A DNA stretch of 64,000 bases from Verrucomicrobiia bacterium. GTDB taxonomy: Bacteria; Verrucomicrobiota; Verrucomicrobiia; Limisphaerales; UBA11358. Positions 2,601 to 36,080 of this stretch are shown here, in pieces. The translations under genes and the position numbers were made by a program. The stretch lies in contig DATLVR010000066.1 in the NCBI GenBank assembly GCA_035577265.1, forward strand, positions 93,819 through 157,818, in the 5' to 3' direction. Numbering within the stretch: position 1 is the stretch's first letter; each line of letters opens with the position of its first letter. The notes beneath the pieces are model-generated. The model worked only from the letters and a program-made list of their open reading frames with translations, was not told the DNA's origin and did no database searches.

Positions 2601-3641
2601 TCAGTGCCCCGCTTTATGATAAAACGCCACCAGTGCCGCCCCGATGGCCTGGGAGAGTTCGCCCAACTCCGCCGGCACGATCTTGATGGTGTCGCGTTGC
2701 GGCGCCCAGAGATACGGCACAGCCGTCTCCCGGATCACGCGCATGTAGCGTTCACGGAATTCCGGCGTGGTCGCTTCGTGATCCATCAATCCGCCGCCAA
2801 TGACAACAATGCCCGGATCAAAAGCCATCACCAGATTGGCGACGTGCAATCCCATGACGCGCGCCTGAAAATCAAAAATCTCCAGCGCCAGCGCATCGCC
2901 TTTCTGCGCCCGGGTGCGAAGCGACAGGACTTTTTCCTTGATGGGCGCGGCGGACTTGGCCAGTTCGTGCTCGGGATGACGCTTGATGAATTCCGCGAGC
3001 AATTGCGGCAGGCCGGAAATGGTCGTGTAAGCCTCCACGCAACCCCAGTCGCGTCCGCAGCCGCAACTGAACGGCTTGCCGGTGAGACCGAGGAGATGCA
3101 CCGCGGCCGCCATGTGACCAGCCTCCATTCCCGCGAGTGTGTCGCCATCGAGGCAGAGGCCGTCCGCGCCGACGAAAGCCGCGCCCAGTCCGGAACCGGG
3201 CATGAGCATCATGACGGTGGCCCGGGTGTTGCCGCGGGCGAGCCGTGCCTCGGCCACGCCACCATAGTTTCCGTCATTGCCGACCACGAGCGGCAGCACG
3301 CGACCGGCCTGTTTGGCGAGCGCGACGCTGTAATCGGTATAAACATCCCAGCCCGCGAAGCTGGCGGGCAGGTTTGGCGTCCGGCTGAAAACGCCATAGC
3401 GTTCATACGGTCCGGGAATCGCGAGGCCGACGCCGGCGACCTGGGACCATTCGAGATTATTTTGCGCGAGAAAGTCGCTGACGCCCGCGATCCAGGAAGC
3501 GATGACGGCGCCGCGCCCGTTTTCGGAATTGGTGGAACGCTGCAAAACCTTGTTCGAGACCGGCTCGCCGTTATCCCAGACCGCGCACAGTTTGGTGGTG
3601 GTCGCGCCGCTATCCGTGCCAATGAAGACTTTTTTACTCAT
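2601..3641 (-). CDS. ROK family sugar kinase/regulator-like protein
   Basis: N-terminal FIGTDSGATTTK ATPase motif and ROK zinc motif CGCGRDWGCVEAY. Start set at MSKKVFIG (ATG 3639-3641). Confidence 0.75.
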   Translation of the reverse strand: MSKKVFIGTDSGATTTKLCAVWDNGEPVSNKVLQRSTNSENGRGAVIASWIAGVSDFLAQNNLEWSQVAGVGLAIPGPYERYGVFSRTPNLPASFAGWDVYTDYSVALAKQAGRVLPLVVGNDGNYGGVAEARLARGNTRATVMMLMPGSGLGAAFVGADGLCLDGDTLAGMEAGHMAAAVHLLGLTGKPFSCGCGRDWGCVEAYTTISGLPQLLAEFIKRHPEHELAKSAAPIKEKVLSLRTRAQKGDALALEIFDFQARVMGLHVANLVMAFDPGIVVIGGGLMDHEATTPEFRERYMRVIRETAVPYLWAPQRDTIKIVPAELGELSQAIGAALVAFYHKAGH

Positions 3642-3727: not shown

Positions 3728-4765
3728 GTGACACAACACGAAACATTCTCAAATCTGCTCCGCGGTGACGCGCCTGTATTGTCGCTCGCGCCGATGCAGG
3801 ACGTGACCACCATCGATTTCATGCGCGTCGTCGCGCGTTACGGCGGGCCGGATGTTTACTGGACGGAATTCTTCCGCGTCCACGGCGATTCGCGGCCGGA
3901 AAAGTGGATTCTCGATTCCATCACCAAAAATCCCACCGGCCGGCCCGTCATCGCCCAGATGATCGGCAATGACATCCCCGCGCTCGTGCGCAACGCGAAA
4001 CTGCTCCAGCAATATCCCGTTGCCGCGATCGACCTGAACCTCGGCTGTCCCGCGCCGATCGTGTATCGCAAATGCGCGGGCGGCGGCCTGCTGCGCGAGC
4101 CGCAACGCATTGACGCCATCCTTGGTGCGCTGCGCGACGCAGTGAAAATTCCTTTCACGGTGAAAACGCGGCTTGGCTTTGAGTCACCCGCCGAGTTCGA
4201 CACGCTGCTGCCGGTTTTCGCGAAGCATTCGCTTGATTTGCTCACGGTCCACGCGCGCACCGTCGTGCAAATGTATCGGCCCGGCGTGCGCTACGACCTC
4301 ATTGCGCAGGCGGCGCGCGAGCTGCACTGCCCGGTGTTTGCCAACGGCAATGTCCACAGCGCGGCGCAGGCGCAGGCGTTGCTGGCCGAAACCGGCGTGC
4401 GTGGATTGATGATCGGGCGCGGCGCCATCCGCAATCCGTGGCTGTTCGACCAGGTCCGCGCGCAACTGCGAGGTGAAGAAATAAAACTGCCGACCGGGCG
4501 CGATGTGCTGGCCTACGTCCGCGAACTGTGGGAGAACGAAATCACGCCCGGCGTGAAGGAGTCGTCGCAGGTGATGCGCATGAAGAAATTCATGAACTTC
4601 ATCGGCGACGGCGTGGGTGAGAAATTCCTGCACGACATCCGCCGCGTGGCGACGACGGCGGATTTCTTTCGCGTGTGTGAAGCCTCTCTGAACCACGACG
4701 ACCCCATGCCGCTGGAGCCACAGGCGGTTTCGGAAACGCCTCTGGATTTGCCGGCGGCGTTTTAA
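3728..4765 (+). CDS. tRNA-dihydrouridine synthase (Dus family)
   Basis: LAPMQDVTTIDFMR N-terminus, DLNLGCP and TIM-barrel Dus-like sequence. GTG start. Confidence 0.8.
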   Translation: MTQHETFSNLLRGDAPVLSLAPMQDVTTIDFMRVVARYGGPDVYWTEFFRVHGDSRPEKWILDSITKNPTGRPVIAQMIGNDIPALVRNAKLLQQYPVAAIDLNLGCPAPIVYRKCAGGGLLREPQRIDAILGALRDAVKIPFTVKTRLGFESPAEFDTLLPVFAKHSLDLLTVHARTVVQMYRPGVRYDLIAQAARELHCPVFANGNVHSAAQAQALLAETGVRGLMIGRGAIRNPWLFDQVRAQLRGEEIKLPTGRDVLAYVRELWENEITPGVKESSQVMRMKKFMNFIGDGVGEKFLHDIRRVATTADFFRVCEASLNHDDPMPLEPQAVSETPLDLPAAF

Positions 4766-8309: not shown

Positions 8310-9590
8310 TCAAACCGTTCCCGGCGGCCACAGGCTTTGGCCGACATCCGTGCGGTAATAACTGCCAATGACGCGGATTTTTTTGATGTTCGCGTATGCT
8401 TTCGCAATCGCCGTGTCTAGTTTCGGCGCCAGGGCGATCACGTCCGCGACGCGGTGACCGGTCGCGACCAGGCTTCCGTCCGGATCCCGCGCGACTTCGT
8501 TCCACCAGACGTCGCAGTCGAATTTGCCAACGGTTTCCAGCGGCAGATGTGGTCCGACGATTTTGGTGAACGGATAACCGTAGCCCGCCAGGGTGAGCGA
8601 ACAGCCGAAGTTCACCTTTTTGTTGAACTCGAGTTTCAATCTTTCGTTCCGTGCCGTTTGCAAAATGGCGTTCACCGGATCTTTCAGCATCCGCAAGATC
8701 ATCGGGCCGGACGTGACGCCGATGCGGATGTTGTATTCAATGACGTGCCACCGCCCGTCGCGCTTGATGGCGGTGACCTGCAATGGGCCGTGATAATTCA
8801 CCTTCTGGAACCAGGGCAGCAACGGGTGGATCAATTCCCGCGCCAGGCCGTATTTATCGTGCTCATCGCGCTCCACCAGTCCGCCAAGCGGCGCGCCGGC
8901 GATGATGCCGAGATTGCCGTTGAAGGCATATTTGTATTCCTGGTTGGTGACCAGCGAATGAATCTGCCCGCCACTGATCAGCGCAATGTGCCCGGCTTCG
9001 GCCCGGCCGAGATATTCCTGGAGAAAAACACCCTCGGCGTAGTTGACGTGCCGCAGCCAGGCGCGCGTGTCGGCGACCGTCTCGCATAGAATGGTGTGAA
9101 CCGGGCTCGTCGGCGAGCAAAGCGGGTTCTTGATGACGAACGGATGCGGATGGGCTTGGAGAATTTGCTCCGCCGCCAGCCGGTTCGCGGCGACAAACGA
9201 TTTGGGGAACGGAATCTTGTAATCGACGCACAGCTTCCGCGCGAAATCCCGTTCGCGCTCGATGCGCATCCCCTCGCCGGTTGGGGAAAAAATGCCGACG
9301 CCGGATTTCACCACCTCATTGGCCCACGGCTGCATGGCCCAGTCAATGGACTGCGGGATGACGACCGCGGTCTGGTTTTCCCGCAGCAGCGGCGCCGGGT
9401 TCGGATGGGCGTCATGCAAATAGGTGCGTCCGATCAGCGAGGGCGGGAAATGCCCGTAATTGCGCGTCAGATATGTGGCGACGTGCGCGCCCCCGTCGGC
9501 GAGCGCTCCGCCGATGCTCTGCGCGAACGACCCGACGCCGAGGATCATCACGTTGGTGGCGGACTTTCGAGCTGGCTTGGTTGACGGCAT
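8310..9590 (-). CDS. ATP-grasp enzyme, PurD (GAR synthetase)-like paralogue
   Basis: Rossmann-like N-terminus VMILGVGSFAQS and a central ATP-grasp-like region (PFVIKNPLCS.., EYNIRIG). Start chosen at MPSTKPARK (9588-9590); 9689 is also possible. Confidence 0.55.
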   Translation of the reverse strand: MPSTKPARKSATNVMILGVGSFAQSIGGALADGGAHVATYLTRNYGHFPPSLIGRTYLHDAHPNPAPLLRENQTAVVIPQSIDWAMQPWANEVVKSGVGIFSPTGEGMRIERERDFARKLCVDYKIPFPKSFVAANRLAAEQILQAHPHPFVIKNPLCSPTSPVHTILCETVADTRAWLRHVNYAEGVFLQEYLGRAEAGHIALISGGQIHSLVTNQEYKYAFNGNLGIIAGAPLGGLVERDEHDKYGLARELIHPLLPWFQKVNYHGPLQVTAIKRDGRWHVIEYNIRIGVTSGPMILRMLKDPVNAILQTARNERLKLEFNKKVNFGCSLTLAGYGYPFTKIVGPHLPLETVGKFDCDVWWNEVARDPDGSLVATGHRVADVIALAPKLDTAIAKAYANIKKIRVIGSYYRTDVGQSLWPPGTV

Positions 9591-9687
9591 ATAAAGCGCG
9601 GGCAGTCTTCCGCAAATTTGCCGGCAGTGCAACGCCAAGAAATTCGATTCCTCGACATCCCGCCGGCCCGCGGGCAAAATCAATCCC

Positions 9688-9900
9688 ATGGCAGATCAAA
9701 CGTCCGAGCGGATCGAGACACTCGAGTCGCACGTCGCGCATCTCGAACATCAGCTTGAGCAGCTGAACGAAGTGGTGACCGAACAAAGCCAGCTGGTCGA
9801 GCATTTGAAAAAGCAGGTGCAGCGCCAGTCTGGTGTGCTGGAAACCATCGAGATGGAACGCATCAAGGCCAACAATCCCAAGCCGCCGCATCATCAATAG
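9688..9900 (+). CDS. slyX: SlyX family coiled-coil protein
   Basis: 70 aa with RIETLESHVAHLEHQLEQLNEVV.. heptad pattern typical of SlyX. Confidence 0.65.
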   Translation: MADQTSERIETLESHVAHLEHQLEQLNEVVTEQSQLVEHLKKQVQRQSGVLETIEMERIKANNPKPPHHQ

Positions 9901-10110: not shown

Positions 10111-11313
10111 GTGAGTTTTGTCGCTGAATTTAATTCGTTGCCGCTGGACGCGCTGGTCAATAAATCCACCGCCACCAGTTCCGCCACCGCGCGGGACACG
10201 CTCGGCAAATCCAACCTGTCGCTCGCGGATTTTGCCGCGCTGATTTCGCCCGCCGCCGGCGATTTGCTCGAAGCGATGGGCTGCCGGGCGCACGCGATGA
10301 CGCAGCAGCGTTTCGGCAAAACCATCCGCCTTTTCGCGCCGCTGTATCTTTCCAACGAATGCATCAACAATTGCTCCTATTGCGGTTTCTCGCGCGACAA
10401 TCCGATTCTCCGCGTCACGCTCTCGCTGGATGAGGTGCAGCGCGAGGCGGACGAATTGAAATCGCAGGGTTTCCGCAACCTGCTGCTCGTCGCGGGCGAG
10501 CATCCGAAATTTGTCTCGAACAATTACATGCGCGACTGCGTGGCCCGGCTGCATGCCGAATGGCCGAGCATCTCGCTAGAGGTCGGACCGATGGAAGTGG
10601 AAGACTACAAACCCATCGTCGCGACGGGCGCGGACGGGCTCGTCGTGTATCAGGAAACCTACGACCGCACGGTCTATGACCAGATGCACACCGCCGGGCC
10701 GAAGAAAAATTTCGACTGGCGGCTGGAAACACCCGAGCGCGCCTACGCCGCCGGTTTCCGCCGGCTGGGTCTGGGCGCGCTTTACGGACTGGCCGACTGG
10801 CGCTTCGAGGCGTTGAGTCTGGCGGCCCACGCGGATTATCTGCTGCGTCATTGCTGGAAGGCGCAGATCACGATTTCGCTGCCGCGCCTGCGCCCGTGCG
10901 CGGGCGAATTCGAGCCGCTCACGCACATCAGCGACCGCGAGCTGGCCCAGCTCATCTGCGCGTTCCGCCTGATGTTTCCCGATGTCGGCATCGTGCTCTC
11001 CACGCGCGAGACGCCGAAGCTGCGCGACGGATTGATTCCGCTCGGCGTGACGATGATGAGCGCCGGCGCCCGCACCGAACCGGGCGGCTACACCGGGGCC
11101 GGCCGGGAGAAAATCCATCACACCGAACGGGGCATCATCAAGGAGATCGCGTCCGGCTCCAGCGAATGGGTGCCGCAACTCAAGCGCCCGACGAACGCGA
11201 CCGGCCAGTTCGACATCGGCGACGAGCGCACGCCGCAGGAAGTCGCGGCGCTGATCCGCAAGCTCGGCTACGAGCCGGTGTGGAAGGATTGGGACGCGGC
11301 GCTGACGATGTGA
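10111..11313 (+). CDS. thiH: 2-iminoacetate synthase ThiH (radical SAM tyrosine lyase)
   Basis: CINNCSYCGF radical-SAM CX3CX2C motif, ThiH/HydG-like length, thiS nearby. GTG start. Confidence 0.8.
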   Translation: MSFVAEFNSLPLDALVNKSTATSSATARDTLGKSNLSLADFAALISPAAGDLLEAMGCRAHAMTQQRFGKTIRLFAPLYLSNECINNCSYCGFSRDNPILRVTLSLDEVQREADELKSQGFRNLLLVAGEHPKFVSNNYMRDCVARLHAEWPSISLEVGPMEVEDYKPIVATGADGLVVYQETYDRTVYDQMHTAGPKKNFDWRLETPERAYAAGFRRLGLGALYGLADWRFEALSLAAHADYLLRHCWKAQITISLPRLRPCAGEFEPLTHISDRELAQLICAFRLMFPDVGIVLSTRETPKLRDGLIPLGVTMMSAGARTEPGGYTGAGREKIHHTERGIIKEIASGSSEWVPQLKRPTNATGQFDIGDERTPQEVAALIRKLGYEPVWKDWDAALTM

Positions 11314-11316
11314 AGC

Positions 11317-11745
11317 ATGAAATCTCTGCAACGAATCTTGCTGGCGGCCGGTATCATTTCTGTAATGGCGTTTATTCTGCTGGCGATACTCGGCAATCCA
11401 AACCACAAGCCAGCCCTAAATGCAATATGTCGACTGGAATTGGGGGATATAAAAAATGCATTAGACGGCTATCAATCTAAATACGCAAACTATCCGGCTG
11501 GAAATCAATCTGAAATAATCAGATGTCTATGCGGAAACAATCCGGAACGATATCAATTCTTAAATATCAAGGCGAGCCAGCTGAATTTAGATAAAGGGTA
11601 TCTTGATCCTTGGGGAAGTCCTTTTACAATCAACTTTTCTTCAACGAATAGTTTTGTCATTTCATCAGCTGGCAAAGACAAACTTTTTGACACTAAGGAC
11701 GACATCATCTTCAACAGCCTCTCAAACGATTTCGTGAAACCATGA
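11317..11745 (+). CDS. GspG-like (type II secretion pseudopilin C-domain) membrane-anchored protein
   Basis: N-terminal TM but no G/FTLIE prepilin motif. DPWGSPFTINF..VISSAGKDKLFDTKDDIIF matches the GspG C-terminal signature. Visibly more A/T-rich than its flanks. Confidence 0.55.
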   Translation: MKSLQRILLAAGIISVMAFILLAILGNPNHKPALNAICRLELGDIKNALDGYQSKYANYPAGNQSEIIRCLCGNNPERYQFLNIKASQLNLDKGYLDPWGSPFTINFSSTNSFVISSAGKDKLFDTKDDIIFNSLSNDFVKP

Positions 11746-12824
11746 TTCTGCGCCAGTTCGCCTTCTTTTTATTTTTGTTCGCCTCGGTCTTTGTTTCAGC
11801 TGCCGCGGAGACGAATTATTTCTGCATCGTCTGCGGCAAGGGGCCGCTGTATGGCCAGATCTGGCTGCATCCGCGCGGCCCGATCTGCGATGTCTGTCAT
11901 AAGCTGGAAAACCGCTGCTCGCTCTGCGGCCTGCCCGTCCGCAACGGCGACGGCTCGGCGAAGACGGGCGACGGACGGTTCATCTGCAAATTCGACAGGC
12001 CCAACGCGGTGCTGGACGTGGAGGCGGCCCGGGAAATCTTCGAGAACACGCGCCGGGACGTGACGGATCTCTATGGCCAGGGTTTCCTGCTCAAATCTCC
12101 GGACGTGACCGTGAACATGTTCGACGTGGATTATTGGTCGGAGAAGGGCCGCGACAATGGCCTGGACAAATATGGTTTCGCCAGCACGCGCCGGACCCCA
12201 AGCGGCCAGTGCACGCACGAAGTCGTGGTGCTGAGCGGCCAGTTGCGCGACGAGATGATCGCCACCGCCGCGCACGAATACACGCATTTATGGATCAACG
12301 AAAACCGTCCGACCAACCGCGTGATCGCCGGCGACACGATCGAGGCGATCTGTGAACTGACGGCCTACAAGCTCATGCAGAAAAGGAATCTGCCGGAAAT
12401 GCAGAAACGAATCCTGGAGAATACCTACACCCACGGGGAAATCAAAACCCTGGTGGCGATCGAAAAGCGATACGATACGGATTCCGTGCTGGACTGGGTG
12501 AAGCATGGCAAGACCGAGACCCTGGAGGAAGACACGGGCTTGTCCGCCCCGGCTGTGTCGCCGCCGCCCGTGCAGTTCTCGTATGTCCCGCCGGTGCTGC
12601 CCCAGACGCTCAAGTTCAGCGGGCTGCTCACCATCGGGCAGGGCCGGCAGGCGGTCATCAACGGCCTCGCGTTTGCGGCGGGCGACCAGAAGTCCATCAA
12701 GTTGCGGGACAAAACGGTGCTGGTCCGCTGCCAGGAAATCCAGGATGCCGCCGTGGTGATAAAACTCAATGGATCGTCCGACCGCTTGACCTTGAAGAAG
12801 GGACAGGAAACATCGCTGCCATGA
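11742..12824 (+). CDS. secreted or anchored protein with a LIM-like double zinc finger and an HExxH metallopeptidase motif (DA1-like architecture)
   Basis: CX2CX17CX2C-X6-CX2CX19CX2D Cys pattern, then AAHEYTHLWINE. ATGA overlaps with both neighbours. Confidence 0.5.
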   Translation: MILRQFAFFLFLFASVFVSAAAETNYFCIVCGKGPLYGQIWLHPRGPICDVCHKLENRCSLCGLPVRNGDGSAKTGDGRFICKFDRPNAVLDVEAAREIFENTRRDVTDLYGQGFLLKSPDVTVNMFDVDYWSEKGRDNGLDKYGFASTRRTPSGQCTHEVVVLSGQLRDEMIATAAHEYTHLWINENRPTNRVIAGDTIEAICELTAYKLMQKRNLPEMQKRILENTYTHGEIKTLVAIEKRYDTDSVLDWVKHGKTETLEEDTGLSAPAVSPPPVQFSYVPPVLPQTLKFSGLLTIGQGRQAVINGLAFAAGDQKSIKLRDKTVLVRCQEIQDAAVVIKLNGSSDRLTLKKGQETSLP

Positions 12825-13024
12825 ACGAAATCATCGCCAACGGAAAAGCCATTGAAGCCAAGCTGCCCTGCTCGCTCGAGGAATTCCTGGTCGCGCAACA
12901 ACTTTTGCCGCGCAGCGTCGTGGTGGAGCACAACGGCGAAGCGGTCGCGCCGTCGGAATTTTCCGGGCGCCTGCTCAAGGCGGGAGACAAACTGGAGATC
13001 GTCAAGATTGTCGCGGGCGGCTGA
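12821..13024 (+). CDS. thiS: sulfur-carrier protein ThiS (ubiquitin-like beta-grasp, C-terminal GG)
   Basis: 67 aa: I.ANGK..., VVEHNGEAV, GDKLEIVKIVAGG-stop. Confidence 0.8.
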   Translation: MNEIIANGKAIEAKLPCSLEEFLVAQQLLPRSVVVEHNGEAVAPSEFSGRLLKAGDKLEIVKIVAGG

Positions 13025-13124: not shown

Positions 13125-14435
13125 ATGTTGAAGAATTTTCCAAAAATGTTCCGTTCCTTGATGATCTTGCTGCTGCTGGTTTTGGCCTGGTCGGTCTGGC
13201 AGTCGGTGGCGGAGACGAATCTGGCCACGGAAGCGGCGGGATTCAGCGCGGTTTCAAACCGGACGCCCGGCACAAACACCGTGGCCGCACCGGACAAATC
13301 CAATCTGGTCAAAGAATTTGCGTCGCCGGAGTGGATCAAAAGCCTGGCGCAGGACTGGCCGTTTCTGCGTTATCATTATTTGGGAAACGAGCTGTGGAAA
13401 TATATTTTCTCGCTGATCTACATCTTCCTCGCCTTTTACGTCTCAAAGTTCCTCGACTATTTGACGCGGGTCTGGCTCAAAAAGTGGGCAAGCCGGACGA
13501 CCTCCAAGCTGGACGACCTGCTGCTGGAATTGCTTAACGGACCGGTGAAAATCGTGTCATTCGTGATTTTCCTGCGCATCGGGCTGGATGTATTTGACTG
13601 GCCGGCGCAGGTTCAGAGCATCCTCAGCAAGGGCTTCACCGTCATCGTCGCGGTCACCGTCACCTACGCGGTGATGAAACTGGTGGATCTGCTGATGGGT
13701 TACTGGCACCTGCGGGCGGCGGCGGATGCGGACCCGCAATTCCGCGAACAGATATTCCCCATCATCCGCAAGACATTCAAGGCGTTCGTGGTGGTGGTGG
13801 CGACGCTGGTGACGTTGTCCAACATCGGGGTGAACATCACGGCGGCCATCGCCTCGCTGTCCATCGGCGGCCTGGCGGTCGGCCTGGCGGCGCAGGACAC
13901 GCTGGCGAATCTGTTCGGCGCGGTGGCCATCCTCCTGGACAAGCCATTCCGCATCGGCGACCAGATCATGCTCGACAACGTCACCGGCGCGGTGGAGACC
14001 ATCGGCTTGCGCAGCACCAAAATCCGCAATCTGGACGGGCATCTGGTGACCATCCCCAACAAGACGATGGGCAACGCCACGCTCACCAACATCACCAGCC
14101 GGCCCAACATCAAAACGGTGATGAACATCGGCATCACTTACGACACCCCGACGGAAAAAGTGAAACGCGCGCTGGCCATTCTGGAAGAGATCTACCAAGG
14201 CAATCCGAACACGAAAGATTTGCTGGTGAGCTTCAACAAGTTCACCGATTCGACCCTGAACTTGCAAGTTGTCCACTGGTGGAACTCGACTGACATGAAG
14301 GCATATCTGGCAGGGATGCAGGAAATCAATCTGGCCATCAAGGAACGGTTTGATGCGGAAGGCATCGGCTTCGCCTTCCCGTCGCAGACGCTTTACTTGA
14401 AGCAGGATTCCAACTGGAGCATCGCGCAAAAATGA
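13125..14435 (+). CDS. mechanosensitive ion channel (MscS family)
   Basis: TM region followed by LANLFGAVAILLDKPFRIGDQI and MscS beta-domain-like sequence. Confidence 0.85.
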   Translation: MLKNFPKMFRSLMILLLLVLAWSVWQSVAETNLATEAAGFSAVSNRTPGTNTVAAPDKSNLVKEFASPEWIKSLAQDWPFLRYHYLGNELWKYIFSLIYIFLAFYVSKFLDYLTRVWLKKWASRTTSKLDDLLLELLNGPVKIVSFVIFLRIGLDVFDWPAQVQSILSKGFTVIVAVTVTYAVMKLVDLLMGYWHLRAAADADPQFREQIFPIIRKTFKAFVVVVATLVTLSNIGVNITAAIASLSIGGLAVGLAAQDTLANLFGAVAILLDKPFRIGDQIMLDNVTGAVETIGLRSTKIRNLDGHLVTIPNKTMGNATLTNITSRPNIKTVMNIGITYDTPTEKVKRALAILEEIYQGNPNTKDLLVSFNKFTDSTLNLQVVHWWNSTDMKAYLAGMQEINLAIKERFDAEGIGFAFPSQTLYLKQDSNWSIAQK

Positions 14436-34223: not shown

Positions 34224-35006
34224 ATGCTCCCGCGACTGAAAGTCGTATCCATTATCAAACTGCTTTCGAGTGGCCGCACCAAGCCTTGCCTTGTTCTTGC
34301 TCAGGATGAAGACGGTGTGGAATGTGAAGTTGTTGTCAAATGGCGTTCCGGCCCGGAAACAAAAGACACTGGTGGCATCTGCGAGCTCATTAGTTCACTG
34401 CTCGCTGATGATTTTGACCTGCCGGCTCCGAAAGCAATGTTGGTTGACGTTGAACCCGATTTTCATCGTGCGGTTCCATGGCCAGAGATTGCAAAGTTGG
34501 TGAAGGCCAGCGCAGGCCCGAATTTTGCCACCAAATTCTTGCCAAGCATGACCACCTGGCCCACCGGACGACCGGTCGCATCATCATTGCGCACTCGCGC
34601 CTCGGAGATTTTTGCGTTTGATGCCTTGATTGAAAATCCGGACCGACGAATCAACAAGCCGAACATACTTTGGAGCGGTGAAGATTTGTGCTTGTGTGAC
34701 CATGAGCAGGCTTTTTCTTTTCTGCACGGCGTTATTGGTTGGCGGCCGGCATGGTCGGGACAAGGTCTTGAATTTCTCCGCAACCATGTGTTTTATGTCC
34801 AATTGAAAGGGCAAATCTGTGATTGGAGCAGGTTGAGTGGAGCGCTGGAAGCCATGAATGACAAGCGCCTGATTGATTATGCGACGGCGGTGCCAGATGA
34901 ATGGAAGACGGGAAATGATGCAACCGACCGCATTTTAGGTTATCTTAAAGGCGCGCGACAAAACAAGGCTGCGCTGTTTGCAGCCATTGACCAAATACTA
35001 AAATGA
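34224..35006 (+). CDS. HipA-like / PI3-4-kinase-fold Ser/Thr kinase domain protein (C-domain only)
   Basis: FAFDALIENPDRRINKPNILW (catalytic-loop-like D..N) and LCLCDHEQAF (DxG-like). About 260 aa. Start ATG 34224. Confidence 0.6.
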   Translation: MLPRLKVVSIIKLLSSGRTKPCLVLAQDEDGVECEVVVKWRSGPETKDTGGICELISSLLADDFDLPAPKAMLVDVEPDFHRAVPWPEIAKLVKASAGPNFATKFLPSMTTWPTGRPVASSLRTRASEIFAFDALIENPDRRINKPNILWSGEDLCLCDHEQAFSFLHGVIGWRPAWSGQGLEFLRNHVFYVQLKGQICDWSRLSGALEAMNDKRLIDYATAVPDEWKTGNDATDRILGYLKGARQNKAALFAAIDQILK

Positions 35007-35872
35007 AAACGACATACACATTCACGATCTTGCGATACGTGCATGACATCGCTACCGGCGAATTTGTCAATGTGGGCGTGGCTCTTTACGCTCCCGAGGC
35101 AAAATATGTCAGTGCCATCTGCTGCCCGCGCTACGGACGCTTGAGTAAAATGTTTCTCGATGTGAACGGCGACCAACTCCGCCCGCTGATGCGTTTTATA
35201 CAAGCACGCTTCGAGGAATACACCCTGAAATTGAACGATGAGTTGGCTTTGCATGGCCAGCCAAAGAGCGTCATGGAAATCGCCGCAAACATTCTTCCTC
35301 CAGATGACAGCTCTCTGCAATGGTCGGAACCGGGTGGTGGCTTCACCGAAAATCCCGGCGTGACCTTGGAACAGCTTTACAGCCGGCTTGTCGAGAAATA
35401 CGAACAACGCGCACAGGTGCCAAGCCGCACCGATGATGAGGTGTGGCGCGGCTTTAAAAAGGAGCTTGAAGTCAAACAAGTCCTGGCAAAGTTGCAGCCG
35501 AAACGGATTATCGCCAAAGATTACGACCATGAATTTGACCATGCTTGGAAGAATGGCGCTTGGAATCTTTACCAGCCCATCTCATTTGATTTAATTGATG
35601 CGGAAAGCCTCTTAGACAAGGCCAATCGCTGGCTTGGTCGTGCCACAATTCTTCAAGAGTCGCAGGAAAAATTTAAGCTGCACATGCTCTTGGGTGAACC
35701 TCGTTTGGAAAAACTAAAGTCCGCATACGGAAAAGCATTGAATATCCTCAACCGGATGCCGGTCAAAAAGGAATTTGTTCGCGAGGACGAAGCATCCAAT
35801 TTTTCCAAAGCCTTGGCAGAGGAAATCGAAAAGCATAAGTCGGCAATTTTTTATCATGCGGACATTGGTTGA
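35003..35872 (+). CDS. DUF3037-like protein, unknown function
   Basis: N-terminus YTFTILRYVHDIATGEFVNVGVALY matches my recollection of the DUF3037 signature. ATGA overlap with the kinase gene. Confidence 0.5.
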   Translation: MKTTYTFTILRYVHDIATGEFVNVGVALYAPEAKYVSAICCPRYGRLSKMFLDVNGDQLRPLMRFIQARFEEYTLKLNDELALHGQPKSVMEIAANILPPDDSSLQWSEPGGGFTENPGVTLEQLYSRLVEKYEQRAQVPSRTDDEVWRGFKKELEVKQVLAKLQPKRIIAKDYDHEFDHAWKNGAWNLYQPISFDLIDAESLLDKANRWLGRATILQESQEKFKLHMLLGEPRLEKLKSAYGKALNILNRMPVKKEFVREDEASNFSKALAEEIEKHKSAIFYHADIG

Positions 35873-36080
35873 AATTCAAGATGCCGTTGCCCAGCTTCCC
35901 GGCGACGAACGAAAAGCTTTGCAGATGTGGCTCAATTCCCAAGGTGAGTCCGGGTTGACCGCGCCGGAAGAACAGCGCCTGCTGCGTTCGCTGAATGAAG
36001 CCGTCCGCGACATTGATGCCGGCAAAGGCGTGCCGATAAATGATGTCCGCAAGCGGGTGGCATCATGGGCTTCAAAATAA
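35856..36080 (+). CDS. type II antitoxin (addiction-module component-like)
   Basis: 74 aa, MRTLVEIQDAVAQLPGDERKAL... Overlaps both neighbours and sits just upstream of a RelE/ParE-type toxin gene. Confidence 0.55.
   Translation: MRTLVEIQDAVAQLPGDERKALQMWLNSQGESGLTAPEEQRLLRSLNEAVRDIDAGKGVPINDVRKRVASWASK

Follow-up and report, generated by a model that had tools for sequence, protein, structure and literature searches.

What are genes for two apparently exported proteins doing inside a thiamine biosynthesis unit? We address this question for a 64-kb stretch of DNA (hereafter the window) from a genome of the verrucomicrobial order Limisphaerales (subdivision 3), in which a 142-aa GspG-like gene (11317-11745) and the gene for a 360-aa LIM-like/DA1-like zinc metallopeptidase (11742-12824) lie between thiH (10111-11313) and thiS (12821-13024), all on the + strand. 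The TGA stop of thiH (11311-11313) is followed after 3 nt (agc) by the ATG of the GspG-like open reading frame (ORF), which shares an ATGA overlap with the peptidase ORF, and a second ATGA joins the latter to thiS. The ORF map and the junction sequence confirm the near-zero spacing described in an earlier note on this DNA, which had read the locus either as a foreign two-gene insertion or as a functional link between a DA1-like protease and a ubiquitin-like Gly-Gly protein. We favor, with a probability of about 0.55 for the reading as a whole, that an exported DA1-like peptidase and an anchored pseudopilin-like protein are old residents of a slot between thiH and thiS.

The thiH-thiS interval and its occupants

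To place the locus among its relatives, we examined 52 reference-genome loci together with samples of 121 genomes from the order and 150 from the phylum. Among the 121 genomes of the order, thiH is present in 113, thiS in 112 and a homologue of the peptidase in 47. In about 35 genomes of the order from which the peptidase gene is absent, or in which it lies elsewhere, thiH directly adjoins thiS with a gap of about 20-100 nt. Within the order, thiH next to thiS is therefore the ancestral arrangement, and in that sense the peptidase gene is an insertion, with the polarity that had been proposed for this locus. The order thiH, zero to two genes, peptidase gene and thiS, with or without a following mscS, recurs in about 35 fetched loci with peptidases down to 42% identity, and the same order from thiH to thiS is found in 12 of the 121 sampled genomes, where the high-scoring orthologues are mostly arranged as thiH-peptidase-thiS. 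In three relatives, the peptidase gene and thiS shared the identical 4-nt overlap and the upstream genes were variable; an ATGA overlap of peptidase stop and thiS start is present in 32 of 37 loci. The trio is also found split in both directions, with thiH and the peptidase gene together but no adjacent thiS (L022, L025, L028, L035, L037, L043, L064) or with the peptidase gene and thiS together but no nearby thiH (L003, L004, L013, L019, L042, L044).

Phylogenetic trees point to a long residence of the peptidase in this interval. In the ThiH tree, 27 members of a 28-row clade (99/93) carry the peptidase, and the 28th is a same-genus genome in which both the GspG-like gene and the peptidase gene are missing, with no remnants of either, such that only the end of thiH and the start of thiS align. 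The peptidase tree unites all thi-linked genes in one derived clade (100/100), with forms linked to a transketolase gene (tkt) in basal position. These basal members, 29-32% identical, lie between transketolase (NF004559, 871 bits) and yqgE/algH in at least 11 sampled genomes; in the genome that contains the window, tkt and algH are adjacent and the interval is empty (C108:49506-52024). Outside the order, only weak partial matches were found in the sampled genomes of the phylum. The simplest history is that the peptidase gene probably entered the thiH|thiS interval once, having moved from an older tkt|algH position, and it appears to have been inherited vertically in a large clade since that entry, with occasional loss. 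These trees and the host-like composition of the peptidase gene (GC content at third codon positions, GC3, of 0.81) run against the suggestion that it arrived as part of a foreign insertion; the thi-linked peptidase clade follows the 99/93 ThiH clade. The titles of several relatives point to other phyla (Bifidobacteriaceae, Methylomirabilota, Acidobacteriota, Vulcanimicrobiota, among L009, L011, L015, L017, L027, L028, L044, L046, L047 and L052); their sequences nest in verrucomicrobial clades for both ThiH and the peptidase, and these labels look unreliable.

The tkt/algH and thiH/thiS neighborhoods do not appear fully independent. One locus has the order tkt-algH-peptidase-thiS (L042), in another tkt is divergent from peptidase-thiS (L044), tkt lies 3.2 kb past thiS in a third (L011), and algH lies 2.3 kb past thiS in genome G269, while thiS is followed directly by algH, after 3-6 nt, in two genomes (G151, C39:5787-6532; G237, C249:1801-2546). 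Such arrangements may reflect either ancestral physical proximity of the two loci or a functional thiamine pyrophosphate (TPP) theme. As a separate observation, yqgE/algH belongs to the core genes of the order, with a copy in 120 of 121 genomes, and adjoins transketolase (also in L091-L097); a link of the uncharacterized AlgH/YqgE family with thiamine and transketolase genes may deserve its own look.

In this order, the thiH|thiS interval has long served as a slot that takes up genes for exported proteins as well as toxin-antitoxin (TA) cassettes. In relatives it holds, alone or combined, GspG-like genes, an anchored family of about 170 aa, a YaeI-like phosphodiesterase, Band_7 and ClpP-like genes, and TA cassettes; in L001, whose peptidase is the closest to that of the window (82%), a Band_7 gene occupies the place of the GspG-like gene. 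The anchored family (about 170-215 aa with an N-terminal anchor; L016, L018, L037, L038, L039, L051, L077, L010) is a second slot-specific, AT-rich family, with a GC3 of 0.33-0.49 (0.69 in L016) and no Pfam match; its motif ...PAHAVGYSDG(T/S)xGLISP... recalls H-X9-DG pilin-like proteins. The YaeI-like phosphodiesterase (NF008460, 297 bits), which has a twin-arginine translocation (Tat) signal, recurs in the interval with host-like GC3 and tight coupling to thiS (L072 at 1555-2409, L075, L078, L085, L087, L088, L089, L035, L021). TA cassettes (MNT/HEPN, VapBC) stand behind thiH in relatives, and after each of them the final ~87-93 nt of thiH recur as a direct repeat with 86-95% identity, as in L047 (3697-3789 and 4491-4583), L032 (1230-1316 and 2157-2243), L036 (170-256 and 609-695) and L062 (2325-2411, with copies at 3121-3207 and 3903-3965), the last of which contains two serial TA cassettes and two extra copies of the thiH end. 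These repeats suggest an insertion mechanism aimed at the 3' ends of genes.

Slots with variable genes between conserved housekeeping genes are known, as are cassettes that insert at the 3' ends of genes. Like such slots, the interval described here has conserved flanks, thiH and thiS, and alternative, often AT-rich cargo. Unlike them, it lies inside an apparent operon, its cargo is probably coupled in translation to the downstream gene, and its peptidase and GspG-like genes are old and under purifying selection, not transient. PADLOC models matched neither the GspG-like protein, the peptidase and ThiS nor any of five further occupants of the slot, and on these grounds we set aside a defense-system reading of the slot.

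We found no intrinsic terminator-like site within the unit above shuffle expectation, and thiS is tightly coupled to whichever gene stands before it, a position that GspG-like or YaeI-like genes can also hold. The inserted genes, which show neither a terminator of their own nor a convincing promoter, would be transcribed together with thiH, and the last of them would be translationally coupled to thiS through the ATGA. A TPP riboswitch had no Rfam match at the gathering score in the window or in L001, L003, L004, L007 and L008, and the lone TPP riboswitch candidate of the genome lies outside the unit and below threshold.

The peptidase and the GspG-like protein

The cysteine pattern and HEYTHLW motif that the earlier note had picked out in the 360-aa ORF are exact. 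The LIM-like double zinc finger (11823-11996) reads C28-x2-C31-x17-C49-x2-C52-x6-C59-x2-C62-x19-C82-x2-D85, and it is followed by a gluzincin-type peptidase domain (12018-12506) with the metal motif H178-E-Y-T-H182-L-W (HEYTH at 12273-12287) and, 19-23 residues on, E201 and E205, which together make up the HExxH plus downstream Glu site of clan MA. Residues of the cysteine pattern and the metal motif, including D85, are invariant in 33 orthologues, the seven Cys of the zinc finger are invariant in 115 diverse representatives of the protein's HMMER family, and H178, E179, H182, E201 and E205 are either invariant or conserved to at least 90%, C204 being invariant or nearly so. The protein has more than 514 close homologues of equal length, all annotated as hypothetical, and a profile search gathered 1018 clusters at 50% identity with a common architecture.

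Assignment to the DA1-like family (PF12315) is transitive, as it runs through these relatives. When the 115 representatives were scanned against Pfam, 89 matched PF12315 at E <= 0.01 (best E 5.7e-12), and two relatives, P0190 (32.5 bits) and P0269 (36.5 bits), exceeded its 25-bit gathering score. LIM (PF00412) was weakly matched by 13 of the 115 (best E 6.3e-5). The window protein itself had no PF12315 match at E <= 0.1, was not matched by LIM and drew no direct Pfam or NCBIfam assignment past a weak M78 hint; the resemblance to DA1 and LIM proteins proposed earlier thus stands at the level of the family, with the window protein below the Pfam filters. The finger lengths of 17 and 19 residues and the terminal D fit the LIM pattern CX2CX16-23(H/C)X2C-X2-CX2CX16-21CX2(C/H/D), the inter-finger spacer is six residues where LIM has two, and "LIM-like" is the safe term for this zinc finger. 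Searched by sequence against solved structures, the 360-aa protein gave chance-level zinc-finger matches only, and whole-chain Foldseek gave no significant protease match and no DA1 structure among its results.

The protein most likely leaves the cytoplasm, as judged from hydropathy, charge and the -3/-1 rule. Its first 22 residues (11742-11807) resemble a signal peptide, reading MILRQ, FAFFLFLFASVFV and SAAA, then ET, and the hydrophobic part is conserved in the orthologue alignment. In at least 102 of the 115 representatives the first CxxC is preceded by such an N-terminus, in which a positively charged n-region leads into 13-17 hydrophobic residues and then small ones, and the N-in charge bias extends across the family. 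We predict export because of this signal-like N-terminus in combination with a PilP-like domain at the other end of the chain (12606-12800). In an AlphaFold2 model of the whole protein (mean predicted local distance difference test score, pLDDT, 78.8), a C-terminal beta-domain follows a disordered linker, and this domain modeled alone reached a pLDDT of 91.4. Foldseek placed PilP structures at the top by probability, namely 2ivw (probability 0.97, template modeling [TM] scores 0.57/0.41, E 0.14) and 2y4y_D (probability 0.93, TM 0.57/0.55, root-mean-square deviation 3.7, E 0.77), and T2SSB (PF16537) was matched by one of the 115 representatives. The small beta-sandwich is like the beta-domains of PilP, GspC-HR and GspB in these weak-E matches; it differs from them in being fused to a peptidase rather than forming part of a lipoprotein or inner-membrane platform protein, and no secretin gene lies nearby.

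Plant DA1/DAR proteins (PF12315) likewise have a LIM-type zinc-finger module followed by a clan-MA HExxH...E peptidase domain, the DA1 site being HEMMH-x15-EE (Dong et al. 2017, PMC5322733) as against HEYTH-x18-E-x3-E in the window. In contrast to plant DA1, the window peptidase has no evident segment resembling a ubiquitin-interacting motif (UIM), has a signal-like N-terminus and is probably extracytoplasmic, carries the extra PilP-like C-terminal domain, and has a six- rather than two-residue spacer between its fingers. Prokaryotic counterparts have also been described: the passage of Dong et al. (2017) on bacterial LIM-like peptidases, citing Burroughs et al. (2011), describes an ancient LIM-like domain shared with bacteria and proteins, as in Roseiflexus, in which four CxxC/H pairs are joined to a DA1-type peptidase. 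As that passage describes them, bacterial LIM-like/DA1-type peptidases are a kind already known, and since it makes no mention of export signals, a PilP-like domain or a thiamine-gene context, what appears new here is the architecture (export signal, PilP-like domain) and the genomic context of that known kind.

The companion gene encodes a smaller protein with a single N-terminal hydrophobic helix. Its identity as a T2SSG protein was upheld in part: it matches PF08334 with 25.4 bits (cut-off 21) and has the DPWG...SAGKD..DD motifs of GspG, and it scores 22.4 bits on the GspG equivalog TIGR01710 against a cut-off of 88.85. By these profile scores it carries a T2SSG domain and is not a GspG orthologue, and a canonical GspG is present elsewhere in the genome (C142, 101.5 bits). 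The N-terminus, MKSLQRILLAAGIISVMAFILLAIL, has no G/FTLIE motif of a prepilin leader, and the GspG cleavage-methylation site G/F(M)TLIE is likewise absent, as MKSLQRILLAAGIISVMAFILLAILGNPN contains neither the motif nor Glu+5. Unlike GspG, then, this protein has no prepilin-peptidase site, and its gene is AT-rich, lies outside a gsp operon and is so far confined to the thiH|thiS interval.

The composition of the GspG-like gene is as unusual as it had looked to the eye. Its GC content is 0.406 and its GC3 0.413, against 0.70-0.86 for the GC3 of its neighbors; with z = -4.9 relative to all 429-nt windows, of which 0.09% are equally low, it has the lowest GC content that the window shows over this length. 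The only other stretch with a 429-nt GC below 0.45 lies at 35431-35929 and falls largely on a 289-aa ORF (35003-35872) that sits in an apparent accessory patch.

This AT-richness is no sign of recent arrival, because it is common to all alleles. In every allele checked within the peptidase-carrying clade, GC3 is 0.37-0.56 against 0.73-0.83 for the flanks, and in more distant families of the order, where the GspG-like family also occupies the thiH|thiS interval, it is 0.50-0.64. Divergence at synonymous sites (dS) from L062, which has a 76% identical allele, is 0.54 for the GspG-like gene, 0.54 for thiH and 0.58 for thiS. A ratio of nonsynonymous to synonymous divergence (dN/dS) of 0.20-0.31 against homologues marks the ORF as a real gene under purifying selection. 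Of 59 detectable homologues, the contexts of 4 were looked up and all 4 stand directly after thiH, 1 with TA cassettes and the peptidase gene, 1 with the peptidase gene only, and 2 followed by thiS without a peptidase gene; so far, the family is confined to this interval. A strict functional dependence of the GspG-like protein and the peptidase was rejected, as each is found in the interval without the other. The idea of a foreign insertion therefore retains, for this gene, its odd composition but not its timing: the gene appears to be an old, interval-specific occupant across the order, sometimes without the peptidase, whose AT-richness would be maintained or renewed by allele exchange.

Residents, thiamine economy and ThiS

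In the reading that we favor, the 360-aa gene would encode a Sec-exported zinc metallopeptidase of the LIM-like/DA1-like family with an added PilP-like C-terminal beta-domain, and the 142-aa gene a membrane-anchored protein whose periplasmic part has a GspG pseudopilin fold without a prepilin leader. Both products would leave the cytoplasm and work in the envelope, where the peptidase might use its PilP-like domain to dock onto a partner of the pilus or secretion type, for example the pseudopilin-like protein, and ThiS would stay an ordinary cytoplasmic sulfur carrier and no substrate of the peptidase.

Several points weigh against this picture. Export is predicted from hydropathy, charge and the -3/-1 rule, and it is unusual to find zinc fingers of the Cys4 type outside the cytoplasm. 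Matches to PilP combine high probability with weak E-values of 0.14-0.77. The ThiH tree has a poorly resolved backbone, such that a single gain is compatible with it rather than proven, and co-transcription with thiH is a prediction, as is the translational coupling to thiS. Finally, the recurrent thiamine neighbors of the peptidase gene (thiH, thiS and the TPP-dependent transketolase) oblige a passenger model to assume ancestral proximity.

That last point speaks for the main rival, a functional linkage in which the slot occupants serve the thiamine economy, either by scavenging in the envelope alongside thiazole synthesis or, with lower probability, through an action of the peptidase on ThiS; we regard such a linkage as doubtful overall. 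In its more plausible form, which we likewise hold to be unlikely, the exported slot proteins (peptidase, YaeI-like and pseudopilin-like) would be co-expressed with thiH and thiS under thiamine shortage and would help to scavenge extracellular thiamine or thiamine precursors, for instance by freeing and dephosphorylating protein-bound TPP or thiamine monophosphate. A linkage would account for the repeated presence of the family next to thiH, thiS and the TPP-dependent transketolase: the peptidase gene lies beside thiH or thiS in about 18 of the 47 sampled carriers and between tkt and algH in at least 11, and independent rearrangements bring peptidase-thiS near tkt or algH again (L042, L044, L011, G269). 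The recurrence of a Tat-signal phosphodiesterase of host-like GC3 in the interval, and the tight coupling of any gene ahead of thiS, fit the same idea. The regulation that it implies is harder to see, as neither the window nor the relatives' loci contain a TPP riboswitch and the genome's one candidate is elsewhere and below threshold. Nor is the slot reserved for such proteins, since it also houses the unrelated TA cassettes, Band_7 and ClpP-like genes, and eight other carriers have the peptidase gene in unrelated contexts. A same-genus genome does cleanly without both genes, roughly 60% of the order (121 sampled) lacks the peptidase, and we know of no biochemical role for a protease in thiamine salvage.

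A direct action of the peptidase on ThiS, as a prokaryotic counterpart of ubiquitin-controlled DA1 that would process, deconjugate or regulate a ubiquitin-like protein, is very improbable. Pairs of a JAMM/MPN protease with a ThiS/MoaD-type carrier do exist, namely Mec+/CysO and QbsD/QbsE, and the locus resembles them in that a metalloprotease gene adjoins a small beta-grasp protein ending in Gly-Gly. It differs in that the enzyme is an HExxH gluzincin rather than a JAB protease and is predicted to be exported, the carrier has no C-terminal extension, and no E1-like gene is found in the cluster. The peptidase-thiS pair is kept in six loci where thiH has been lost nearby, the ATGA overlap is widely conserved, zinc fingers suggest a reducing compartment, and plant DA1 activity is ubiquitin-dependent (Dong et al. 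2017, PMC5322733). Still, the predicted export, the absence of a UIM, the Gly-Gly end of ThiS, a linkage to thiH about equally frequent and the presence of other genes before thiS make such a link unlikely. The signal-like N-terminus with its N-in charge bias is family-wide and is accompanied by the PilP-like domain; no E1, E2 or JAB genes lie nearby; the sole thiamine-type ThiS already ends in GG, so trimming is unneeded; thiH-linked lineages without an adjacent thiS are about as common as the reverse split; basal family members stand by tkt and algH, where there is no ThiS; and GspG-like or YaeI-like genes fill the same coupled position ahead of thiS. The ubiquitin-type connection floated in the earlier note is therefore disfavored.

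A recent foreign insertion of both genes into this genome's thiamine operon is scarcely credible, and composition, synteny and trees led us to reject it for the peptidase. Although the GspG-like gene is exceptionally AT-rich, has its closest allele (76%) in a genome with a 62%-identical peptidase and only 29-37% identical alleles in genomes with 88% ThiH (which suggests allele exchange between lineages), and is replaced by a Band_7 gene in L001, the peptidase gene is host-like, syntenic and monophyletic with its flanks, and the GspG-like gene matches thiH and thiS in dS and belongs to a family that is AT-rich in all alleles and found in the interval across the whole order.

If the two genes are indeed old residents, the locus would offer a clean, datable example of exported, unrelated genes lodging in a biosynthetic operon and persisting through the history of a clade by borrowing its transcription and coupling to the translation of the next gene. 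The bacterial DA1 relatives found here would then be secreted envelope enzymes with a docking domain like those of pilus machines, which bears on the origin of the LIM-peptidase architecture and warns against taking a DA1-like gene beside a ubiquitin-fold protein as a ubiquitin-type system. Should one of the minority readings hold instead, the locus would point to a branch of thiamine acquisition outside the cytoplasm that has not been described before, or to a new relation between a protease and ThiS. Its main appeal lies in the combination of a long-lived, operon-internal slot with an unexplained thiamine-themed neighborhood.

Flanking genes

The identities of the flanks are well supported. 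ThiH, a radical SAM 2-iminoacetate synthase that opens the unit, scores 445.6 bits on TIGR02351 (cut-off 380), satisfying the equivalog score, matches the radical SAM and BATS domains (PF04055, PF06968) and is encoded by a single-copy gene. ThiS scores 56.7 bits on TIGR01683 (cut-off 37.45), ends in ...KIVAGG and is the sole protein of this type in the genome, the two other PF02597 ORFs being MoaD-like. As had been observed from the sequence, neither thiG nor thiF follows: the next gene is an MscS-type channel gene (13125-14435, + strand; Pfam MS_channel domains) that is syntenic in many relatives, and the genome's one thiG is on contig C35 and its only ThiF-family gene on C141, both away from the thiH-thiS unit. 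Upstream of thiH, a slyX-like gene (9688-9900, + strand; PF04102, 53.3 bits) is likewise syntenic in many relatives. On the opposite strand, 8310-9689 encodes a 459-aa ATP-grasp protein that scores 105 bits against a purD equivalog cut-off of 288 and whose neighborhood of alr, slyX and thiH is kept in relatives; it is probably PurD-like rather than PurD.

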